From Octopus vulgaris (lineage: Eukaryota), in contig OX597836.1 of NCBI GenBank assembly GCA_951406725.2, positions 16,430,001 to 16,494,000 of the forward strand: DNA of 64,000 bases. Direction: 5' to 3'. Of the stretch, positions 9,704 through 57,575 are shown piece by piece; positions within the stretch are counted from its first letter, which is position 1; the number at the start of each line of letters is the position of its first letter. Both the position numbers and the translations under genes were made by a program. The notes under the pieces are model-generated. The model had not been told where the DNA came from and ran no database searches. It saw nothing but the letters and a program-made list of their open reading frames with translations.

Positions 9704-9920
9704 GATGATGATGATGATAATGATGACGACGACGACGACGACGATGACAATGACGATGATGATGATGAAGATGATGATGATGAAGATGATGATGATGATG
9801 ATGATAATGATGATGATGATGATGATGATAATGATGACGACGACGACGACGACGATGACGATGACGATGATGATGATGACGATGATGATGATGACGATGA
9901 TGATGATGATGATGATGATG
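9598..9920. repeat. (AAT)n/(GAC)n/(GAT)n compound microsatellite
   Basis: Read directly. Confidence 0.95.
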
Positions 9921-10479
9921 ATTTCTTTATTAAGGCTTTACATTAGGAAAAACTTGGAGAGTACAGGAAAAACAAAGAACGTGTGTGTTGTGAGGGTTTT
10001 GCGTGTAAACAAGACTAACAAGATTTTTCAAAAATCAGCAATGTGTGAACCTCGATAGGGAGAAGACGTTAGAGGGCTGCTCATGGAAAAAAAACCCATA
10101 AAAAACACCATGGGTACCCTGACTTTTAGGGCAGGTGCCTTCTCTCCTCTTCTTTTTATTTCAACTGCTGGCGTATGCTCAGGGCCAGGCCCGTTCACTC
10201 GCACCATTCTCACCACTTCCATCCACCTTTCTGCAAATTGGTTAGAAGACAATACTTCCCTCTCTACCCTTATTTTTCTTTTCAAGTGAAACTTGAAGAA
10301 GTTCATCGGGGACTGGCCAAAGAGAAAAGTGTTCGTCTTCAGCCCCTTCAATCTCGCCCATCATACAACCTCTTTCGCCATGGCCACCAGGTATTTCCTT
10401 CTCGGTTAAAGGAAGGCGACACGACGATATTCACGATGGATTCAGTTGACAGCCGGATCCGTCCCACGCACGACAGCAT
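9921..10479 (-). mobile_element. Tx1/L1-clade LINE, 5'-truncated 3' end
   Basis: KGLKTNTFLFGQSPMNFFKFHLKRKIRVEREVLSSNQFAERW and the 3' UTR are colinear with the longer copy at 41331-42230. Confidence 0.8.
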
Positions 10480-17287: not shown

Positions 17288-17555
17288 GACCTATTTCTTT
17301 ACTACCCACAAGGGGCTAAACAACAGAGGGGACAAACAAGGACAAACAAACGGATTAAGTCGATTAGATCAACCCCAGTGCGTAACTGGTACTTAATTTA
17401 TCGACCCCGAAAGGATGAAAGGCAAAGTCGACCTCAGCGGAATTTGAACTCACAATGTAACGACAGACGAAATACCTATTTCTTTATTTCACAACGTAAC
17501 GACAGACGAAATACCGCAAAGCATTTTGCCCGGCGTGCTAACGTTTCTGCCAGCC
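17288..17555 (-). mobile_element. SINE family C (tail 1) with a short internal duplicated mini-unit
   Basis: Family C body; cacaa.gtaacgacagacgaaatacc occurs twice, joined through tatttcttta. Confidence 0.85.
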
Positions 17556-18590: not shown

Positions 18591-18645
18591 CTGCCCTTAT
18601 ATGACCTTTAAGCCCAGCCAAAGTTTTACACATTTTATTAGATAC

Positions 18646-19064
18646 TTATTTCTTTACTACCCACAAGGGGCTAAACGCAGAGAGAACAAACAAGGACAAA
18701 CAAACGGATTAAGTCGATTAGATCAACCCCAGTGCGTAACTGGTACTTAATTTATCGACCCCGAAAGGATGAAAGGCAAAGTCGACCTCGGCGGAATTTG
18801 AACTCAGAACGTAGCGGCAGACGAAATACCTATTTCTTTATTACCCACAAGGGTCTAAACACAGAGTGGACAAAGAAGGACAGACATAGGTATTAAGTCG
18901 ATTACATCGACCCCAGTGCGTAACTGGTACTTAATTTATCGACCCCGAAAGGATGAAAGGCAAAGTCGACCTCGGCGGAATTTGAACTCAGAACGTAGCG
19001 GCAGACGAAATACCGCTAAGCATTTCGCCCGGCGTGCTAACGTTTCTGCCAGCTCGCCACCTTG
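18646..19064 (-). mobile_element. SINE C dimer (one head plus two units)
   Basis: Perfect 17-bp TSD cacattttattagatac (18629-18645 / 19065-19081). Confidence 0.92.
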
Positions 19065-19419
19065 CACATTTTATTAGATACCGCACAGCTGTGCTGGCTG
19101 ACAGGAGAAACAGGTGCCGCCGTATGCACTCTCTTAACACGTCTTTCCAGACCTCCAACAGAGAGGCACACACTTCCGCATTTTACACATGTTCTGTTGT
19201 GGATTGTAACAGCCACGTCGCTGTTTATCATGGTTCGATTCCTGTGAGATTTTTTTGATGGCTGACCAGACTTGCACGACTCCTACAAACACCTCATCCT
19301 ATAAACCACACGCGCACGAAAAGCAGCACTCCCTCACTTTCCACCGGTCCCCTCCTTCTAAGTCTCTCATGTTTCAATCTTTCCTTCTTAAACCCCAAAC
19401 AACCACTAGGCACAGTCTT

Positions 19420-23585: not shown

Positions 23586-23586
<1 letters not shown>

Positions 23587-23979
23587 CCTTTCTACTAGAG
23601 GCACAAGGCCTGAAATTTGGGGAGGGGACAGTTGATTGCACCGACCCCAGTACTCAACTGATTCTTAATTTATCGACCCCGAAAGGATGAAAGGCAAAGT
23701 AAACCTCGGTGGAATTTGAACTCGGAACGCAACGAGAGACGAAATACCTATTTCCTTATTACCCACAAGGGGCTAAACACAGAGGGGACAAACAAGGACA
23801 GACATAGGTATTAAGTCGATTACATCGACCCCAGTGCGTAACTGGTACTTAATTTATCGACCCCGAAAGGATGAAAGGCAAAGTCGACCTCGGCGGAATT
23901 TGAACTCAGAACGTAACGGCAGAGGAAATACGGCTACGCAATTCGTCCGACGTGCTAACGTTTCTGCCAGCTCGCCGCC

Positions 23980-23980
<1 letters not shown>
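23586..23980 (-). mobile_element. SINE C hetero-dimer: head plus tail-1 unit fused at GGTATT to a head-less tail-3 unit
   Basis: Junction gaaatacctatttcc at ~23741-23755. Confidence 0.88.
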
Positions 23981-24053
<73 letters not shown>

Positions 24054-26887: not shown

Positions 26888-27717
26888 CACTATTTTAGTA
26901 CTGATATTAGAATGGAATTCGGACTCAAGAAGTGTGGAAAAATCTACCTAGAAAGAGGCAAAGTACTGTCCCTTGCGGGGATAGAATTACCGAATAGAGA
27001 ACTGATTAAACAAATTGAAACGGAAGGTTACAAATACCTTAGTGTACTAGAGTTCAACGAGATAATTGCAAAGGAAATGAAAGAGCAACGGAAGATGGAG
27101 TATTTTCGAAGACTAAGGTTGGTGTTGCGCTCAAAACTGAGTGAATGGAATAAAATTCGAGTAGTTAATACGCGGGAAATAGCATCACTTTGGTATGGAG
27201 CTGGAATTATAAAATGCCAAAAGAAAGAACTAATGAAAATAGATACGAAGACAAGAAAAATGTTGACAATGCATGGAACCTTCCACCCTAAGAGTGAAAC
27301 TGATAGGCTGTGCTTATCCATAAGAAATAGTGGGTGAATTTTGATCAGTTGCCAGGATTGTATCGAAGCGGAGGAAAATAGCTTGGGGTGGTATGTAAAA
27401 AATGTCGTGGAACCATCGTTAAAACATGCGAGGGAGGCCGGCGTCATTAGAACTGAGAATTTTTAAGAAAGAAAAATTTAAAGAGGAAAAGAACACTAAA
27501 AAAAAGAAGCAACATGGAAGTAAAAAAAAATGTACGTCCAGTTTGCAAGAGATACAAACGCCAAGACACATACGGACGACCTGTGGCTATGGATGAGAAG
27601 GGGTGACTTGAAAATAGGAACAGAAGCACTCATATGCGCAGCTCAAGGACAAGCGTTAAGGACTAACTACGTGGAGTGCCGAATCGACTACACTACCGAC
27701 AGCGACAAATGTCGGTA

Positions 27718-28510: not shown

Positions 28511-28823
28511 AGGACTGCCTGCAAAAACTCCGCGCACATTTTGGACAAGGCCGTCGGACAGCATTCGGTCAGAGCTTACCCCCAACCGACAATCGCCCCC
28601 TCCCCTCCCAACAGCACTACAAGGCCAGAGATTTCTGGTAGTGGGGTCTTTAGTCGCTAGTTGAAAAGTTCCATGTGGCAGAGCAGCCAATTAATTTATG
28701 GTCCAGAGATTCATTAAGGCCGCTGTCGCCCTTCTTCTCCAATAAACGTCTACAGAATACTAACGTGAAACCTATTGCTACTACTATTACGTTACTATTA
28801 GTACTACTATTACTACTGTACTA

Positions 28824-29473: not shown

Positions 29474-29629
29474 ACGCATTGATTCCTATATCATCGGCAT
29501 ACATTCCACATGTAATATGTATCTAGATGTGCGTATAAAAAAATGTAACAAATATGTGAGTGTACGTATATCTGTATATTAATGCATATGTATATACAAT
29601 GTGTGTGCCTCTGTGTGTATATATATATG

Positions 29630-29683
<54 letters not shown>

Positions 29684-29831
29684 TACATATAGATATATAC
29701 ATATATATATACACACACACATACACACACTTATTTATGCATATATATATGTATATCTTATGTGTGTGTGTGCTTGTATAAATGATATGTATGATATATA
29801 TATATGTATGTATATATATTTATATATATAC

Positions 29832-29885
<54 letters not shown>

Positions 29886-30295
29886 ATATGTATGTGTGTA
29901 TATATATATACATACATACATACATACATACATACATACATACATACATACATACACACACATACGTATATATATATAAATGATGTCTTTTTTTTCTTTT
30001 GCTTCTTTCACACTGGCATTGCCCATGGCTCCAAATAACTTCTAACCACTTGTGGAGCACTCTTAGTGAATAAATACCTCCATTAGACGAATTACGATCT
30101 GTGTATCTCGAGTGGTTCAGTGAGCGTTTATTTACCACCAAACACATGCGTATATGTGTGTGTACACACATGCACATAAACACATATATTATCTAAATAT
30201 ACATACATATATATATTGTATGTATGTATGTATGTATGTATGTATGTATGTATGTATGTGTGTGTGTGTGTGTGTATGTATATATATTATATATA

Positions 30296-30341
<46 letters not shown>

Positions 30342-30375
30342 CAAACATACATACATACACACATCTACATGCATG

Positions 30376-30430
<55 letters not shown>

Positions 30431-30529
30431 AGGGACATACTTGTATTTAACATATATTTACATATATACACAGCCATATAAATACATATACACTACATGT
30501 GTGTGTACGTATATATACATACACACACA

Positions 30530-30596
<67 letters not shown>

Positions 30597-30899
30597 AGAC
30601 AGAAGAAGAAGAAGGAGAAGAAGAAGAAGAAGAAGAAGAAGAAGAAGAAGAAGAAGAAGAAGAAGAAGAAGAAGAAGAAGAAGAAGAAGATACACGTGTA
30701 TATATATATATTTATATATATATATACATACATACACACACATATTCATGCGCACACATGCAAATTCACACGTATATACCAATAACAGAGAGAGAGGGGG
30801 GACTGGCCTTGAATCTGGCTGGTGTTTCTATCAAAACATTGAGTTGTGGTGGGAAGGTTTGGGGGGGGGGCGTGTGTGTGGTGTGCGGGAAAGGAAGAT

Positions 30900-31476
30900 C
30901 TTTAAGTGAGTGTTAATGGAGGACAGCAAGCGGAGATTTGGAGAGGAAAAAAAGTGAAGGCTTGAGGAAGAGTGAGGATAAGAAGGTGGAGTGAGAGTTG
31001 GAGGGTGAGTGAAGGTTAGCAGGGAGAGTGGAGAGGTGCTAGAAAAAAAAGAGTGGTTTTATCTTTAGGATTTGAGAGAAGGGAGGGGAGCAGGGAACGA
31101 GGGGATGCGGAAAGGTAGATGGGGAGGAGGAGGAGGAGGGGGGAGAGGCAGGGTAAATGGTAGAAGGTAGATGGGGGAATGAAGTGGCGATAGTGGTGGC
31201 AGGTGGTAGTAAGAGAAGGTAGAGACGATAGGGAAGGTGTTGTGGGTGAGTGACGTGAGAGTTTGTGGTAGACGTGAGGGAGAGGGGGGGTGTACGGCGA
31301 TTGGTAGAAAGGGTGAGAAATGGATGAGAGGACGGAGAGAGGAGAGAGAAGTGGGAGGAGAGGAAGAGGCATAGGGGAGGAAGAGAAGAGAAGAGGAAGA
31401 GAGAAGAAGAAGAGGGAAGAAGAGGAAAGAGGAGGAGAAGAAGAAGAAGAGGGAAGAAGAGGAAAGAGGAGGAGAA

Positions 31477-31511
<35 letters not shown>

Positions 31512-31555
31512 AGAAGAGGGAAGAAGAAGAAGAAGAAGAAGAAGAAGAAGAAGAA

Positions 31556-31623
<68 letters not shown>

Positions 31624-33132
31624 AGAAGAAGAAGGAAGATAGAAGAAGAAGAAGAAGAAGAGGAAGAAGAAGAGAGAAGAAGAGGAAGAGAGAAGAAGAA
31701 GAAGAAGAAGAAGAAGAAGAAAAGAAAGAGAGAAGAAGAGGAAGAAAAAGGAAGAAGAAGAAGAAGAAGAAGAAGAAGAGGAAGAGAGAAGAAGAGGAAA
31801 AAAGAAGAAGAGGAAGAGGCATAGAGAGGAAGAGGGAAGAAGAGGAAGAGAGAAGAAGAGACAGATGGAAATGGAGGTTGACATGGGGAGGGAAAAGAGA
31901 GGGATAACTAAATAGATGTGAAAGGATGGGTTATGGAAAGTGATAGAGAGACAAAGTAAGTAGGGAGAGAGACGAGCATGAGGAAAAGAGGAAGAAGAGA
32001 GAAGATGGAAGGGGAGAGAGAGATGTAGAAAGGAGAGGAAGAAGTTGGAATGTGATGTAAGGGGAAAAGGGAGAGAGAGAGAGGAACAGAGAGAGAGAGG
32101 GAGAGGAACAAAGAGAGAGGGAGAGGAATAGAGAGAGAGAGGAACAGAGAGAGAGAGAGGGGAACAGAGAGAGAGAGAGGAACAGAGAGAGAGAGAGAGA
32201 GGGGAACAGAGAGAGAGAGGAACAGAGAGAGAGAGGAACAGAGAGAGAGAGAGGAACAGAGAGAGAGAGAGGAACAGAGAGAGAGAGAGGAACAGAGAGA
32301 GGGGAAGGGGAGGTGAGCGTGACTGAATGGCTGAAAATGGAGGGGAAGGAAGGGGGGATAAAGAGAAATGCAAACTGGAAAAGGAAAGTGTGAGAGAGGT
32401 AGACAGAGAGATGAGAAATAAAAGAGAGAGAAAGGTAGAAGGAGAGCAGATGAGAAAAAGGCAGTAAGATACAGAGAGAGCAAAAGTAAGAGGAGAGAGG
32501 AAGAGAAATCAGGGTGAGAGGGCAAAAGTAAAAGAGAGAGAGAGAAAAGATGGGGTGGAAAAGAGTGAGTGCGAGCATTAGAGAGGGAGTTGCAGAAAGA
32601 GTGATATATATGTGAGAAAGAGAGGGGGGGAAGCATTGAATGACAATGAAATACTGAGAGAGGGGGAGATGGGGAAGGTGAGAGCTAGAGAAAGAAGGTG
32701 CAAAATAGTTGAATGAGAGAGAGAGAAACAAAGAGAGAATAGAAGAGAAGAAAAGAAAGAGAACTGGGGAGAGGGAGATAAGAGAGAGAGAACATTACAA
32801 GGTATATTAAAAGAGAGAGAAAGAGAGTGTAAGAGAAGATGATTGAGAGAGAAGGGGATGGTGAGAGCGAGGACGAAGAGAAAATGAGAGGGAAAGAAAG
32901 AGAGGTATATTAAGACATAGAGAGAGTGTAGGGGAGAGATTGGTGGGGAGAGGTAAAAACAAAGAGAGTGAGAGATAGCGGGAGAGTGTGCATATATGAA
33001 ATTGAGAGAGAGGGTGACAAAGAGAGAGAGTGAGAGTGAAATTGCAAGTGAGAAGAGGAGAAAGAATGAAATTGTAAGAAGTGGAGGAAGAGGTGAGGAA
33101 GAGAGTGAAATTGCGATTCAGAGAGAGAGAGA

Positions 33133-33170
<38 letters not shown>

Positions 33171-33264
33171 ATGTAAAAAATGTGAGAGAGGATGAGAGCG
33201 ACAGAGTGAATTTGCAGGAGAGGGGGAGAGAGAGAATGTGAAATTGGGAGAGGGGGAGAGAGAA

Positions 33265-33295
<31 letters not shown>

Positions 33296-33616
33296 GAGTG
33301 AAATTTTGAAGGGGATGAGGAAGAGAAAGGAAGTGAAATTACAAGAGAGAGAGAGAGAGAGAGTGAGTGAGTGAAATTTAGAGAAGAAGGGAAGAGCTGA
33401 GAGAGAGAGAGTGAAATTGGAAGAGGGGAGAAGGAAGAGAGAATGCGTGTGTGTGAAATTGTGAGAGGGGATGAGGAAGAGAAAGAAAGTGAAATTACAA
33501 GAGAGAGAGAGAGTGAGAGTGAAATTGAGAGAGGGAGAAAGGAAGAGCTGAGAGAGAGAGAGACAGAGACAGAGAGAGTGAGTGAGTGAAATTGAGAGAG
33601 GGAGAGGGGAAGAGCT

Positions 33617-33647
<31 letters not shown>

Positions 33648-33700
33648 GAAAGAAGAGAGACAGACAAAGAAGAAGAAGAAGAAAAGGAGAGAGAATTTGT
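30900..33700. repeat. ~2.8-kb polypurine/polypyrimidine tract with (GAA)n, a GAGGAACA(GA)n minisatellite (~32080-32300) and a TGAAATT-punctuated segment
   Basis: Read directly; strong A+G bias on the plus strand. Confidence 0.9.
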
Positions 33701-34214
33701 CTAGCAAATGGAATGGCGGAATTGCAGTATAAGTTATGTAGAGGTGGTGGTGGTCGGGTTTGGAAAGACGTTAAGTTACTTCACACCTGTGCCAATCTAA
33801 TTGCAACCCTTCCAACCAGCCCCCCCCCCACTCCCGCCTTCTCTCACCTTCCAATCTCACCTCTAATTCCTCCATACCTGAGTATGCAATCCGAACCCCC
33901 ACCCCACCCCCGACTCCACGTTGTTTTTGCTTTGTTTTTCTTTGGGTTTTTTTTTTGTTTTTGTTTTTTTGGTGGGGTGGGTATTTTTTGTGTGTGTGTG
34001 TGTGTTTGTTTTTTCTACCTCCCAAACCTAGAACCAGGTAAAGAAAGGTATGGCGGTGTTTTGGATGCAAAGGGGTTTCTGTACCGTAGAGTCCCTTGCC
34101 ACAGGAAGCGATTTTCTCGTTACTTAAAACTATTTCCGGTCGGCCGGAACTGTGGCTGATTTCAACGCGAGCTCGTCAGATGGAGTGGTGGAAGGGAGAG
34201 GAGAGACGAATATG

Positions 34215-34540
34215 GGTGGTGGCAGCGGTGGCGTCGGCGTCGGCGGCGGCGGTGGTGGTGGTGGTGGTGGTGGTGGTGGTGGTGGTGGTGGTGGTTGTGG
34301 CGTCGGTGGCGTCGGTGGTGGTGATGGTGGTGGTGGTGGCGGCGGCGGCGGTGGTGGTGGCGTTGGTGGTAGTGGTGGCGGTGGTGGTGGTGGCAGTGGT
34401 GGTGGCGGCGGCGGTGGTGGTGGTGGTGGTGGTGGTGGTGGCGTCGGTGGTGGTAGCGTCGATGGTGGTGATGGTGGTGGTGGTGGTGGTGGCGTCGGTG
34501 GTGGTGGTGTTGGTGGTGATGGAGGCAATGGTGATGATAA
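34215..34540. repeat. (GGT)n/(GGC)n microsatellite
   Basis: Read directly. Confidence 0.9.
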
Positions 34541-34947
34541 GCACTTCTCTATATATTTATGCATATTTCTATGTAGGTTTGTGTGTGTGTGTGTGTGTGG
34601 CGGGGTGAGGTGGTGTGAGGAGCAATTTTTGGAGGTGAAGAGTGGAAATGAATGAATGGAGAACAGATAAAAACAGGACAAAATAAATAAAAGCTAATAG
34701 GGGGGAGGGGGGAGAAAGATAAATAGCGAAGCAGTTTAGACAGACAAGCAGACAGACAGACTGATAGTCTGACGGACAGGTAGACAAATAGTCAGACAGA
34801 CAGGCGGATAGACAGACAGGCAGACGTAATTATTGATAGATATAGAGGCATGATGAAAGCTGTCTGTCTGTCTGTCAGTCTGTCAGTCGGACAGACAGGC
34901 AGTCAAAAACAGGCAGACAAACAGATAGGTAGCTTGGTAAGCAAGTG

Positions 34948-36055: not shown

Positions 36056-36440
36056 CTTATTTCTTTACTACCCACAAGGGGCTAAACACAGAGGGGACAA
36101 ACGGATTAAGTCGATTATATCGACCCCATTGCGTAACTGGTACTTAATTAATCGACCCTGAAAGGATGAAAGGCAAAGTCGACCTCGGCGGAATTTGAAC
36201 TCAGAACGTAACGGCAGACGAAATACCTATTTCTTTACTACCCACAAGGGGCTAAACACAGAGAGGACAAACAAAGACAGACAAACGGATTAAATCGATT
36301 ACATCGACCCCAGTGCGTAACTGGTACTTAATTTATCGACCCCGAAAGGATGAAAGGCAAAGTCGACCTCGGCGGAATTTGAACTCAGAACGTAACGGCA
36401 GACGAAATACGGCTACGCATTTCGCCCGGCGTGCTAACGA
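36056..36440 (-). mobile_element. SINE C dimer (tail 1), head slightly truncated
   Basis: Two units joined at gaaatacctatttc. Confidence 0.9.
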
Positions 36441-36770
36441 TACATGGCGGTGGCTAAGGAAAAAATGATCTTAAAGGATGCACCGAGGCATTGATATGCA
36501 GCGCCCAGGAACAAGTTCTGAGAACTAACTACGCCTAATTCCAAATAGATAAGAACAGTGAATCGACCCTTTGTAGGGTGTGTGACAACAAAATCGAAAC
36601 AATCTCACATGTGAGTGAGTGTAGCAAACTGGCTCAAAAGCACTACAAAAAGAGATCCGATAATGCGGCTAAGTTTGTTCACTGGAGACTGTGTGTGAAG
36701 TACAGTCTTGGAAGGACACGGAAACGGAACAAATACAAACCAGAAGGCATCACAGAGAGAATAATGAATA

Positions 36771-38835: not shown

Positions 38836-38952
38836 CATGCATCCATACATATTTGTATGTCCACATGTATAAAAACATACACACATGTGCATACAAATAT
38901 GCACACAAACATCCATGTGTATGCGTGTGCATCTGTGTGTCTGTGTATTTGT

Positions 38953-40101
38953 AAGGCGGCGAGCTGGCAGAATCGTTAGCACGTCGGGCGAAATGCTTAG
39001 CGGTATTTCGGCTGCCGTTACGTTGTGAGTTCAAATTCCGCCGAGGTCGACTTTGCCTTTCATCCTTTCGGGGTCGATAAATAAAGTACCAGTTACGTAC
39101 TGGGTCGATATAATCGACTTGATACCTATGTCTGTCGATGTTTGTCCCCTCTGTGTTTAGCCCCTTGTGGGTAGTAAAGAAATAGATATTTCGCACGTCG
39201 CTACGTTCTGAGTTCAAATTCCGCCGAGGTCGACTTTGCCTTTCATCCTTTCGGGGTCGATAAATTAAGTACCAGTTACGTACTGGATCGATATAATCGA
39301 CTTGATACCTATGTCTGTCCATGTTATCCCCTCTATGTTTAGCCCCTTGTGGGTAATAAAGAAATAGGTATTTCGGCTGCCGTTACGTTGTCAGTTCAAA
39401 TTCCGCCGAGGTCGACTTTACCTTTCATCCTTTCTGGGTCGATAAATTAAGTACCAGTTACGCACTGGGGTCGATGTAATCGACTTAATACCTATGTCTG
39501 TCCATGTTTGTCCCCTCTGTGTTTAGCCCTTGTGGGTAATAAAGAAATAGGTATTTCGGCTGCCGTTACGTTGTCAGTTCAAATTCCGCCGAGGTCGACT
39601 TTACCTTTCATCCTTTCTGGGTCGATAAATTAAGTACCAGTTACGCACTGGGGTCGATGTAATCGACTTGATACCTATGTCTGTCGATGTTTGTCCCCTC
39701 TGTGTTTAGCCCCTTGTGGGTAATAAAGAAATAGATATTTCGCACGTCGCTACGTTCTGAGTTCAAATTCCGCCGAGGTCGACTTTGCCTTTCATCCTTT
39801 CGGAGTCGATAAATTAAGTACCAGTTACGTACTGGGGTCGATATAATCGACTTGATACCTATGTCTGTCCATGTTTGTCCCTTCTGTGTTTAGCCCCTTG
39901 TGGGTAGTAAAGAAATAGATATTTCGCACGTCGCTACGTTCTGAGTTCAAATTCCGCCGAGGTCGACTTTGCCTTTCATCCTTTCGGGGTCGATAAATTA
40001 AGTACCAGTTACGTACTGGGGGTCGATATAATCGACTTGATACCTATGTCTGTCCATGTTATCCCCTCTATGTTTAGCCCCTTGTGGGTAATAAAGAAAT
40101 A
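38953..40101 (+). mobile_element. SINE C hexameric array (one head plus six ~183-bp units)
   Basis: Units start at ~39002, 39185, 39367, 39550, 39734 and 39918; gtatttgtaa duplicated at 38945-38954 / 40103-40112. Confidence 0.93.
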
Positions 40102-40595
40102 GGTATTTGTAATGTTTGCGTGTGATTTAAGGGAGATTTGATTGCTACTTCTAGCATACCGTTCGACCACCAAGAAACGCTCCCTCTGTTATTGACTCCT
40201 CTTGCTAAACGCGCGGCTGCCGACAAAATAAACGGATAAAACAAATAAGCAAAATAAGCGTTATATAATCGACGTTGCTATATCTGTCCAGTAGAGGATG
40301 TTGGAGAGCAGACAGACATGGAGCTGAACAGACGGTGAAGTGGTCAGAACTTGGGTTAGAGTTCTCAACGATGTCAAGGAGGAACGGGAGGAAGGGAAGG
40401 GGGAAGAGAGAGAGAGAGGGGGAGAAAGAGAAGCAGGAGGAAGAGGCAGAAGAAGAACAGCAAGAAGCAGAGGAGGAGGAAGATGTAGAAGTGTGTGATA
40501 CTAATAATAGCCGCAGCACGATCATCGATTCCTAAAACACATTTATTTTTTTTTTTCTCTTCCTATTTCATAATAATGATGATGATGATAATAAT

Positions 40596-41249
40596 GGTTT
40601 CAAATTTTGCCACAAAGGGTAGCAATTTTTGCGGGGAGGGGTGATGAGTCGATTACATCGACCCCCCACAGTTCAACTGGTACTTATTTTATCGACCCCG
40701 AAAGGATGAAAGGCAAAGTCGACCTCGGCGGAATTTGAACTCAGAACGTAGCAGCAGACGAATTACCTATTTTTTTTACTACCCACAAGGGGCTAAACAC
40801 AGAGAGGACAAACAAGGACAGACAAATGGATTAAGTCGATTATATCGACCCCAGTGTGTAACTGGTCCTTAATTTATCGACCCCGAAAGGATGAAAGGCA
40901 AAGTCGACCTCGGCGGAATTTGAACTCAGAACGTAATGGCAGACGAAATACCGCAAAGCATTTCACCCGGCGTGCTAACGATTCTGCCAGCTCGCCGCCT
41001 TTCGACGGGTGTAATACCTATTTCTTTACTACCCACAAGGGGCTAAACACAGAGGGGACAAACAAGGACAGACATAGGTATTAAGTCGATTATATCGACC
41101 CCAGTGCGTAACTGGTACTTAATTTATCGACCCCGAAAGGATGAGAGGCAAAGTCGACATCGGCGGGATTTGAACTCACAACGTAACGGCAGACGAAATA
41201 CCGCTAAGCATTTCGCCCGGCGTGCTAACGATTCTGCTAGCTCGCCGTC

Positions 41250-41330: not shown

Positions 41331-42230
41331 ATTTCTTTACTAACCACAAGGGTTTACATTAAGAAAAATATGGATAGTACAGGACAAAACAAAGAATGTG
41401 TGTGCGTGTATGTATGTGCGTGTGTATTGTGAGGGTTTTGCATGTAAACAAGATCAACGAATTTTTTTTTTAAATCAACATGTGATCCTCAATAAGGAGG
41501 AAACGTTCGATGGCTGATCGAGGAAAAACTCCATAAAAAAACCGTGGGTACCCTGACTTTTGAGGTAGGTGCCTTTTTTCCTTTTCTTTTTTATTATTAT
41601 TTTTTTCAACTACAGGCGTATGCTCCAGGGCCAGGCCCGTTCCCTCGTACCATTCTCGCCACTTTCATCCACCTTTCAGCAAATTGGTGAGAAGACAACA
41701 CTTCCCTCTCAACTCTTATTTTCCTTTTCAAATGAAAATCGAAGAAATTCATCAAGGATTGGCCAAGGAGAAAAGTGTTTGTCTTCAGCCCCTTCAATCT
41801 CGTCCACCATACAATCTCTTTTGCCATGACCACCGAGTATATAAACACAGCCTTTCCTTCACAGTTAAAGGAAGGCGACGGTGCGAACTTCACGATGGAT
41901 TCAGTTGACAGCCGGATCCGTCCCACGCACGACAGCACAGATGTTCGACATAAACCCATAGGTCAGCAATGCTCGGGCACAGGACGAGTGCATGCAGGAC
42001 TGTCTCGTCATCTTGCGCGCATCTCGGACATACTTGGCTGACGGCACTTTCGTAACCGTAAAGTTTATCTCGATCGGGCAAAGCTCCTCGGTAGCACTGC
42101 CAAGCCAGAGATTTTTGGAAATTATCCATCGGTCCCGGGCCGAAAGTTATTCGGAAAAGAGCGGCTAGTTGATCTTCCGACGCCCACGGTCTCCCCAAGA
42201 ACGTCGTCGCACTTTTCTTCCACTAATCCT
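41331..42230 (-). mobile_element. Tx1/L1-clade LINE 3' end (C-terminal zinc finger plus 3' UTR)
   Basis: LAWQCYRGALPDRDKL...VCPRCAQDDETVLHALVLCPSIADLW is an L1/Tx1-type C-x2-C...ET..H....C finger; ~275-bp 3' UTR then (TAT)n. Confidence 0.85.
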
Positions 42231-49890: not shown

Positions 49891-50519
49891 TTATTCTTTG
49901 AAGCTGCGGCAATGCTGGGGCACCGCCAATTATTATTATTATTATTATTATTGTTATTGTTATTATTATTATTATTATTATTATTGATAATGATGATGAT
50001 GATGATGATGATGGCGTATATGTATTAATATATGTATGTGGTGGTGATGGTGGTGGTGGTGATGGTGGTGGTGATGGTGGTGGTGATGGTGGTGGTGGTG
50101 GTGATGGTGGTGGTGGTGGTGGTGATGATGATGTTGGTGATGGTGAAGGTGATGATGATGATGGTGGTGGTGGTGGTGGTGGTGGTGGTGATGATGATGG
50201 TGGTGATGATGACGACGATGACAACGACGACGACGACGACGATGATGATGATGATTATGATGATGGTGGTGGTGGTGATAATCCTCCACCAAAAGGGCAG
50301 TAACTTTGGAGTAGGAGATGAGTCGATTACATCGACCCAGTGTTCAACTGGTACTTGTTTTATCGAGCTCGAAAGGATGAAAGGCTAAGTCAAGTAATAA
50401 AAATACTACCAATACCACCATGAGTTTACACTCGTATTTTTTTGGTAATTTTGGCTAATAATATTAAGCCATAGATTATGAGCGCTGGTTCTTTCCTCAT
50501 AAGCGGTATTTATTTGTCA

Positions 50520-51126
50520 GAGGCGGTGAGCTGGCAGAATCGTTAGCAGCTCGGGCAAAATGCTTACCGGTATTTTCTCTGCCGCTACGTTTCTGAGTTC
50601 AAATTTCGCCGAGGTCAACTTTGCCTTTCATCCTTTCGGGGTCGATTAAATAAGTACCAGTTACGCACTGGGGTCGATATAATCGACTTAATCCGTTTGT
50701 CTGTCCTTGTTTGTCCCCTCTCTGTGTTTAGCCCGTTGTGGGTAGTAAAGAAATAGGTATTTTCTCTGCCGCTACGTTTCTGAGTTCAAATTTCGCCGAG
50801 GTCGACTTTGCCTTTCATCCTTTCGGGGTCGATTAAATAAGTACCAGTTACGCACTGGGGTCGATATAATCGACTTAATCCGTTTGTCTGTCCTTGTTTG
50901 TCCCCTCTCTGTGTTTAGCCCCTTGTGGGTAGTAAAGAAATAGGTATTTTCTCTGCCGCTACGTTCTGAGTTCAAATTTCGCCGAGGTCGACTTTGCCTT
51001 TCATCCTTTCGGAGTCGCTTAAATAAGTACCAGTTACGCACTGGGGTCGATATAATCGACTTAATCCGTTTGTCTGTCCTTGTTTGTCCCCTCTCTGTTT
51101 AGCCCCTTGTGGGTAGTAAAGAAATA
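50520..51126 (+). mobile_element. SINE C trimer (one head plus three units)
   Basis: 17-bp TSD ggtatttatttgt(c/g)aga (50505-50521 / 51127-51143). Confidence 0.93.
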
Positions 51127-51477
51127 GGTATTTATTTGTGAGAGAGTATAAAAGATAGCTTTTTTTCCCCCCTTAATTATTATTGTTCGTCGTGTCAGCG
51201 CTAAGGTTACCTTGGAATGAGTTAGTGTACTTACAGAACCGTGTGCAGGTTATAATTCCGTAGAGGTCGGATTCGCAAGGTTTAAGTCCCTTAATCCTTG
51301 GTGGACTTGTTCGCATTTTAATACCGCGGATGATCTCTGGATGTTTGAATGGAATCAGAAGTGGAGAAGAAACCTTTCTAGTGCATTTACTTAACCGGTA
51401 CCAGTTTAAGCAGATTAATATTAATCGTGTGTGTGTGTGTGTGTGTGCGTGTGTGTATGTGTGTGTGTGCGTGTGGT

Positions 51478-56915: not shown

Positions 56916-57575
56916 TAAGATAGCGAACTGGCAGAATCGTTAGCACGCTGGTCAAAGTGCTTTGCGGTATTTCGTCTGCCGTTATGTTCTGAGTTCAAAT
57001 TCCGCCAAGGTCGACTTTGCCTTTCATCCTTTTGGGGTCGATAAATTAAGTACCAGTAACGCACTGGGGTCGATGTAATCGACTTAATCCGTTTGTCTGT
57101 CCTTGTTTGTCCTCTCTGTGTTTAGCCCCTTGTGGGTAGTAAAGAAATAGGTATTTCGTCTGCCGTTACGTTCTGAGTTCAAATTCCGCCAAGGTCGACT
57201 TTGCCTTTCATCCTTTCGGGGTCGATAAATTAAGTACCAGTAACGCACTGGGGTCGATGTAATCGACTTAATCCGTTTGTCTGTCCTTGTTTGTCCTCTC
57301 TGTGTTTAGCCCTTTGTGGGTAGTAAAGAAATAGGTATTTCGTCTGCCGTTACGTTCTGAGTTCAAATTCCGCCGAGGTCGACTTTGCCTTTCATCCTTT
57401 CGCGGTCGATAAATTAAGGACCAGTAACGCACTGGGGTCGATGTAATCGACTTAATCCGTTTGTCTGTCCTTGCTTGTCCCCTCTATGTTTAGCCCCTTG
57501 TGAGTAGTAAAGAAATAGAAATAGGTATTTCGTCCGTCTTTACATTCCGAGTTCGAATTCCGCCGAGATTGACTT
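56916..57575 (+). mobile_element. SINE C trimer inside an older SINE C copy
   Basis: Diverged head, three homogeneous units, then old-type remainder ggtatttcgtccgtctttacattccgagttcgaattcc. Confidence 0.9.

Follow-up and report, generated by a model that had tools for sequence, protein, structure and literature searches.

An octopus SINE family with preferred insertion sites in its own head

A SINE family of Octopus vulgaris is mobilised to specific targets, and these targets lie in members of its own family. A fixed joint, a preference for GGTA(T), an older last unit, a tail like that of a LINE and a sister tail with a different site are all observed in the data presented below. An initial annotation of the window, by which we mean the whole 64,000-nucleotide stretch of DNA that was analysed (C23:16,430,001-16,494,000, in an assembly of 2.8 Gb), had overlooked the sister tail (C-type), the second site at nt 17 and the fact that the last unit of a chain is an older host. 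The link between dispersed SINEs and tandem repeats is called poorly evidenced in the available part of a survey of squamate repeats (PMC10702118). The octopus family offers a countable path from a dispersed SINE to tandem repeats that starts from targeted insertion and not from chance recombination.

The six-unit array and other copies in the window

The array at 38953-40101 (+), 1,151 bp in length, comprises a single head and six units, with SINE nt 50 as the point of every joint, and is described by TRF as 5.9 copies with a period of 184. Its five internal joints (39185, 39367, 39550, 39734 and 39918) read AAAGAAATA followed by GGTATTT in two cases and by GATATTT in three, so that the earlier description of one head plus n=6 units with fixed internal joints holds at all five. 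Window positions 38953-39185 were taken as the reference SINE and numbered nt 1-233. In this numbering the single head corresponds to nt 1-49 (38953-39001, +), and the landing site at nt 50, GGTATTT (39002-39008, +), lies between two pattern matches, one A-box-like (nt 13; 38965-38975, +) and one B-box-like (nt 75; 39027-39039, +), the second landing site, nt 17, falling inside the first of them at 38969.

Two haplotypes, A and B, which are 8% apart, can be distinguished among the units. Unit 1 (38953-39184, +), with head, body and T-type tail, is a mosaic of both; units 3 (39367-39549, +) and 4 (39550-39733, +) belong to haplotype A and differ from each other by 1.1%; units 2 (39185-39366, +), 5 (39734-39917, +) and 6 (39918-40101, +) belong to haplotype B, with unit 2 at 0.6% from unit 6. 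Judged by identity only, the closest relatives of unit 6 are units 2 and 5 (98% and 96%; others 93-96%), and no sibling of it was found outside its own locus. The near-identity of units 2 and 6 and of units 3 and 4 favours a reading in which longer chains, such as this one, would have grown locally. A marker that is rare in the family and is carried by the B units of the array was found at 20 other loci, none of them a sibling of unit B: 11 are intact old copies, one is headless at nt 17 and eight are headless at nt 50, these eight standing behind tails of different subfamilies. The array is bounded by an upstream TSD copy, GTATTTGT(AA), at 38945-38954 (+), whose final two A are common to the head, and by a downstream copy, GTATTTGTAA, at 40103-40112 (+); these form a T-type TSD although the haplotype B body is older, which counts against the in-place reading for this array.

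Other copies in the window indicate that the units of one chain are not all alike. A three-unit T-type chain (50505-51140, +) has a TSD starting with GGTATT and a two-unit chain (18630-19082, -) one starting with GGTATC, and a further two-unit chain (36058-36441, -) has a 5'-truncated head. At 23586-23983 (-) and 40596-41003 (-) a T-type unit is followed by an older copy, with tail 2b and tail 2a, respectively, the joint being at nt 50 of that copy, and at 56916-57575 (+) three T-type units are followed by a decayed fourth unit that starts from nt 50. The uniform chains initially assigned to 23586, 40596 and 56916 have therefore to be corrected, the first two ending in tail 2 and the third having the decayed fourth unit. 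At 17291-17554 (-) the host head is retained, 13 nt of tail are inserted at nt 50 and host nt 50-75 are duplicated, which, as judged from its sequence, is a truncated in-place insertion at nt 50. The target sequences quoted previously (GGTATT at 50505, GGTATC at 19082-19077 on the minus strand, GGTATG at 27714 and TATT at 28808) were confirmed, but the one at 28808, whose TATT is correct, does not serve as an example of the family target, since that copy has a C-type tail, for which the targets are not GTAT.

Anatomy and abundance of the family

The SINE is a dispersed, non-coding, high-copy element of 233 nt, of which nt 1-167 (head and body) are common to several tails: tail 1, in its T-type and C-type forms, and tails 2a and 2b. 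Body divergence of monomers increases from T-type (0.036) to C-type (0.054), 2b (0.120) and 2a (0.156). Genome-wide, there are 79,264 exact T-type tails, 26,366 exact joints of tail 1 to nt 50 and 2,605 exact joints of tail 1 to nt 17, the reversed control giving 0 for each kind of joint. About one third of the exact tails take part in a joint, and the tail is retained in all units. A random sample of 112 arbitrary 10-kb stretches (1.12 Mb) contained 201 family elements, in which the sequence after a T-type tail was nt 50 in 44 cases, unique DNA in 34 and some other position of the SINE in 12, eight of these 12 coming from a single array.

Chains of 1, 2, 3, 4, 5, 9 and 12 units were present in this sample 37, 22, 8, 1, 2, 1 and 1 times, respectively, and 12 was also the longest chain when chosen loci were added to the 1.12 Mb, a coverage that might overlook long arrays if they are rare. 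The proposal that the SINE had been turned into a satellite does not agree with 37 monomers, 22 dimers, 8 trimers and 5 longer chains with a maximum of 12 units; the term satellite is overstated, and what is found are short one-headed chains resembling nuclei of the squamate satellites (sSats) considered below. In locus L162 (-) a nine-unit chain, with all eight joints at nt 83, adjoins one of twelve units whose joints are at nt 50. At L142 1451-1964 (G000:C10, 17,996,023 onward) eight tandem copies of nt 1-64, head only, are repeated with a period of 64.

ARAGORN and Rfam gave no tRNA match for the SINE head, motif look-ups in the literature gave nothing bearing on a CORE or Meta domain, and folding of the tail yielded no single conserved minimum-energy structure, the hairpin being called by eye. 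The elements have TSDs of 10-21 bp and a LINE-related 3' tail, and the family may be classified as a tRNA-type SINE, for which transcription by Pol III is predicted. Some tails (L046, L099, L176, L100, L072 and window 57517) carry an extra GAAATA before the target, which is likely due to slippage when reverse transcription begins. The chains bias repeat counts and age estimates for octopus SINEs, since many 'copies' combine a young 5' unit with an old host.

Tail type and insertion site

The TSD search was anchored on downstream flank bases from +6 onward and the first five target bases were then read upstream, so that the readout is not circular; low-complexity flanks were left out, and the false rate was 9 in 3881 shuffled pairs. 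GGTA was found in 19 of 30 T-type TSDs (GGTAT in 14), obtained from 130 elements, against a background of 0.26%, which corroborates the GTAT(T) enrichment suspected from the window. C-type elements, 55 of which rendered 16 TSDs, showed GGTA in none and instead AGA.. in five and TATA. in four. At loci not selected by joint, 141 of 156 T-type joints lay within nt 47-53, at a fixed site as had been anticipated and not scattered along the SINE. The distribution was 141 at nt 50, none at nt 17 and 15 elsewhere (eight of them from a single array joined at nt 83) for T-type tails, versus two at nt 50, five at nt 17 and one elsewhere for C-type tails (Fisher p 4e-8). Each tail type lands where the head resembles its own genomic targets. 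The short motif alone is insufficient for this, since about 41% of the T-type events in the 1.12 Mb (23 of 56) occurred at nt 50, which accounts for about 4% of the GGTAT sites (59 of 1606, the 59 being 23 hit hosts and 36 intact heads).

That the end of the RNA pairs at the target had been proposed from the base preceding the TSD of the six-unit array, which is t at the upstream copy (38945) and g at the downstream copy (40103). The prediction of the site by the tail type is in keeping with such pairing, but the t/g argument for an RNA-derived GGTATT is weak, since mismatches in the first five bases, among the TSDs listed, were three towards GGTAT and three away from it.

Host age and the surviving head

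Window duplicates, overlapping loci and elements closer than 40-45 nt to the end of a locus were dropped before counting. Mixed chains run from young to old in the 5'->3' direction, with T-type units first, then C-type and then tail 2. In 53 of 61 mixed chains the divergence of the last unit exceeds that of the first (five showed the reverse and three were ties), the values being 0.067 for the last and 0.029 for the first unit, whereas like chains have no last-unit excess (13 v 10 of 26). Three identical chains, L293-295, which were counted thrice in this comparison of mixed and like chains and once in the 1.12-Mb and host-pair counts, belong to a segment of at least 2.9 kb present in three copies of 98-99.8% identity at G000:C1, 22.15-22.30 Mb; they were rejected as siblings, being segmental copies with their flanks. 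The older last units and the nested cases bear out the claim that insertion into existing copies occurred repeatedly and independently; the nested insertions that can still be seen, in which 15-20 bp from nt 50 onward are duplicated, are represented by the 45 exact matches described below. The process favoured for the building of chains is thus repeated insertion into copies already in place, and we infer that local duplication lengthens some of them. A single founder dimer was ruled out by the many architectures and unrelated hosts. At L224 1523-1641 (G000:C13, near 20,059,836) a full-length 5S rRNA (Rfam 105.7 bits) is fused before a T-type SINE, and this chimera is inserted in a host SINE at nt 50, the host sequence from that position being duplicated and the host head and TSD retained.

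Chains could also have been copied mostly whole from a few thousand nested loci, by way of multi-unit RNA starting at an inner head. Loci like such sources, with the head duplicated, do exist (45 exact), the units have no terminator, the six-unit array ends in a T-type TSD and one tail-2b subfamily is commoner as last unit (24/38 v 12/41), but we regard this explanation as improbable. Among 99 terminal host units the closest pair differs by 3.6% and there are no siblings, even if with very many sources the sample would miss them; unit 6 of the array has no sibling outside its locus either, and the three identical chains are accounted for as segmental copies. The nearest-neighbour distance in 27 tail-2b chains was 0.097 for the last v 0.041 for the first unit. 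The TSDs of mixed chains look host-aged, since they are perfect in 2 of 9 cases vs 12 of 18 T-type-ended elements (p 0.046, with small numbers, loci chosen by likeness to the query having been left out); tail-2b monomers have perfect TSDs in 3 of 6. Moreover, about half of the heads look host-derived, while copying of whole chains predicts newcomer heads only.

The surviving head is intermediate between newcomer and host, although the differences are borderline. In 30 T-to-tail-2 chains the head divergence was 0.059, vs 0.042 for the newcomer and 0.087 for the host, with p values of 0.08 and 0.09 against the two extremes, that is, above 0.05. A T1-only allele was carried by 5 of 30 chain heads, 21 of 65 newcomers and 1 of 60 hosts, and head divergence per locus showed no correlation with either unit. 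Head alleles at nt 21 and 38 were discarded as proof of overwriting, given that hosts visible at nt 17 carry the same alleles. Intermediate heads are what would be given either by a heteroduplex or by two heads collapsing into one at a later stage. The latter would be expected if the insertion were an ordinary one, with a doubled head and a 16-bp TSD, and the extra head were lost later between two 65-bp heads, an explanation that the mixed head ancestry fits too and that the instability of doubled heads (eight tandem heads at L142, two at L123) makes conceivable. It would need near-complete loss of one repeat together with rare loss of the other, for no doubled head was found in the 35 multi-unit elements of the 1.12-Mb sample, a new head standing directly after host nt 50-64 gave 45 exact matches genome-wide (reversed control 0) v 26,366 joints at nt 50, and the 184-bp units persist; we consider it very unlikely.

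One-step rolling-circle copying of a circular 183-nt RNA, or repeated template jumps, would account for the homogeneity of chains of at least six units (3.4% within v 8.8% between) and for the 2 of 14 like dimers that differ by less than 3%. Like dimers, however, differ by 7.2% on average, close to the 8.8% found for random pairs, the units at the ends of chains are older and carry other tails, and the array holds haplotypes 8% apart, so that this possibility is extremely remote and the circular RNA of ~183 nt envisaged in the initial annotation is not supported.

The LINE partner and the choice of site

The tail of the SINE has a counterpart at the end of LINEs. The part corresponding to nt 185-232 (39137-39184, + in the array) is common to the 3' ends of L1-group LINEs, to which it is 80-88% identical; 18 of the 30 top zf-RVT loci end in a match to nt 185-233 or to the 3' part of it, and many of 20 further LINE loci share the same match. 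Exo_endo_phos (APE), RVT_1 and zf-RVT domains are found in ORF2 of L307, L235 and L227, and zf-CCHC in ORF1 of L307 and L233 and not in that of L235. The best solved relative of ORF2 is human L1 ORF2p (E 3.5e-66), and the best matches are fish or unnamed proteins at 29%, with ZCCHC3-type ORF1 domains. These likenesses support an L1/Tx1-group LINE as the source of the tail, in line with the Tx1-type origin that had been suggested.

It is possible that the site is set by a target-specific endonuclease of Tx1-type LINEs, with one partner for nt 50 and another for nt 17. Target specificity is frequent among Tx1-type LINEs, and SINEs are carried by them to the target of the LINE, according to the available part of PMC4494074; several LINE lineages in this genome sit at fixed targets or microsatellites. 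Nevertheless, GGTA was not found after any of 24 LINE tails that share the hairpin, and no LINE was found at nt 50 or nt 17 in searches that were narrow, exact motifs being required: there was none in six matches, none in another search and none among the first 100 of 486 matches listed, almost all of which were SINEs with small indels. The 28 distinct nt-17 loci are made of SINE units throughout, and none of 50 LINE loci has its end joined to a SINE head. We therefore judge that setting of the site by the nuclease is rather unlikely. Pairing between RNA and DNA is favoured for priming, because the tail type predicts the site and none of those 24 LINE tails precedes GGTA. Two tails, two sites and tens of thousands of events provide a natural test of passenger RNA versus LINE nuclease.

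Some further LINE arrangements were observed. In the window, decayed 3' ends of L1-group LINEs at 41331-42220 (-) and ~9920-10390 (-) have a related tail followed by (TAT)n/(CAT)n, and are possibly from microsatellite-targeting lineages. A LINE with a 1,140-aa ORF2 is present in at least five tandem copies at L227 (G000:C2, 73.046-73.068 Mb) and L228, and the same 17-nt sequence before the element and after the tail suggests a fixed target. In L215, L233, L234 and L236 the LINE tail is followed by sequence like the element's own 5' start, as in head-to-tail self-insertion. The region 29,600-34,600 of the window is purine-skewed and microsatellite-rich, with a GC skew of ~0.65-0.70 over 30-34 kb.

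A proposed mechanism

We lean, by a small measure, towards a mechanism in which pairing of T-type RNA places new copies at nt 50 of older family copies and an in-register join leaves a single head. Pol III would start in the head and, where no T4 is encountered, would read past the tail into the GGTAT of an old TSD or into the next unit. The LINE protein would bind the tail hairpin, and cDNA synthesis would start where the bases after AAAGAAAUA pair with the nicked DNA, so that GGUAUUUCG... after the tail would favour nt 50, and AGAAA... of the C-type would favour nt 17. Being complementary to the host head beside the nick, the cDNA of nt 66-1 would then pair with that head, and the product would consist of the head, the new unit and the headless host, all inside the old TSD of the host. 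Repeated rounds plus local unequal exchange would lengthen a few chains, which in the array at 38953-40101 would have taken two haplotypes to six units, and every product would again carry both the site and the guide, so that the habit would be inherited. There are precedents for two of these steps, as far as the available parts of the papers go: target-like RNA bases anneal to the target in SART1Bm and R1Bm (PMC7265360), and cDNA pairs with upstream target DNA in R2Bm (PMC6895275).

The self-reinforcing loop of read-through and insertion put forward at the outset is partly supported. The array contains no T4 run, the first one occurring only at 40546, so that read-through by Pol III is plausible; priming by the RNA is favoured. 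A bolder reading, to which we would give somewhat less than an even chance, is that of an RNA-programmed, self-homing SINE, in which the passenger RNA would steer a LINE enzyme of low preference. With the same reserve, it could be added that the target would be inherited via read-through and would have switched at least once (nt 17 -> nt 50), and, held just as tentatively, that in ~40% of the insertions the new copy would take the place of the promoter half of an older relative within the family. If the RNA does steer, an APE-type LINE could be retargeted through a few bases after the tail.

Comparison with known systems

The octopus SINEs OR1 and OR2 have a common body with swapped tails. They are abundant, tRNA-derived CORE-SINEs (PMC4824008, PMC4758252), and the available parts of these two papers make no mention of targeting or chains for them. 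No description of a SINE targeting its own head was found in the literature, in a search whose coverage did not extend to Repbase and most subscription journals. New in the present work are the counts that relate tail type to site, the tests of host age and the observation that GGTA does not follow 24 LINE tails.

The following likenesses and differences refer to the available parts of the cited papers. In the crocodilian SINEU-3/Tx1-Mar system, as in the octopus reading above, Tx1-type LINEs carry a SINE to fixed positions of a repeat that is abundant and interspersed, and there are two preferred sites, a TSD of ~16 bp and tandem insertions (PMC4494074). The target of SINEU-3, however, is an unrelated Mariner, whereas here it is the promoter region of the SINE family itself; tandem SINEU-3 copies are whole and separated by TSDs, whereas octopus chains are single-headed; and the Tx1-Mar LINE shares the target of the SINE, while in octopus no such LINE was found in the narrow searches (PMC4494074).

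The squamate sSat1-3 have tandem units shorter than the SINE and one longer terminal unit, their longer loci are more homogeneous, and their units of 150-180 bp are near the 184 found here (PMC10702118). The sSat trait of at least four middle units plus an extended end is shown by the six-unit array and also by L162 and L308-L310; long arrays of the sSat type, with tens to hundreds of units, are absent, the longest chain in the 1.12 Mb and chosen loci having 12. While sSats reach hundreds of units, lean towards subtelomeric positions and are ascribed to unequal recombination, octopus chains are short and dispersed, and they are seeded by insertion at a fixed nucleotide, whereas no targeted insertion is shown for sSats in that part of the source (PMC10702118).

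The TSD-(SINE)n-TSD multimers of the blood clam are also formed by a mollusc tRNA SINE, with a full first head, later heads cut at one position and one TSD round the whole (PMC11481361). They make up ~3% of copies, their inner units are devoid of part of the tail and recombination has been proposed as their cause, while octopus units keep the tail and about a third of the exact tails stand in joints (PMC11481361). Finally, R1Bm, SART1Bm and R2Bm resemble the proposed steps in the pairing of RNA at the nick and of cDNA with upstream DNA (PMC7265360, PMC6895275), but they are autonomous elements that target rDNA or telomeres with specific nucleases, whereas the octopus SINE is non-autonomous and is its own target.

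Independent sequence data

The possibility that the joints are an assembly artefact was ruled out by the 26,366 joints at nt 50, with none in the reversed control, together with independent contigs of runs X14, X16 and X4, which run through the tail into nt 50 and carry other alleles. Contigs of X5, X1 and X2 hold the flank-to-element joins of the array locus, and contigs of X5 hold joints in which nt 63-65 is followed by nt 1. Absence of the arrays from reads had been named as the finding that would overturn the initial annotation; the joints recur in independent contigs, no independent record spans the whole array, n=6 is the count of the assembly, and the raw-read runs X22 and X23 yielded 1 and 17 reads. 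X4 and X5 carry organism labels other than that of X1, so that the SINE system and the insertion at the array locus are probably common to related organisms.
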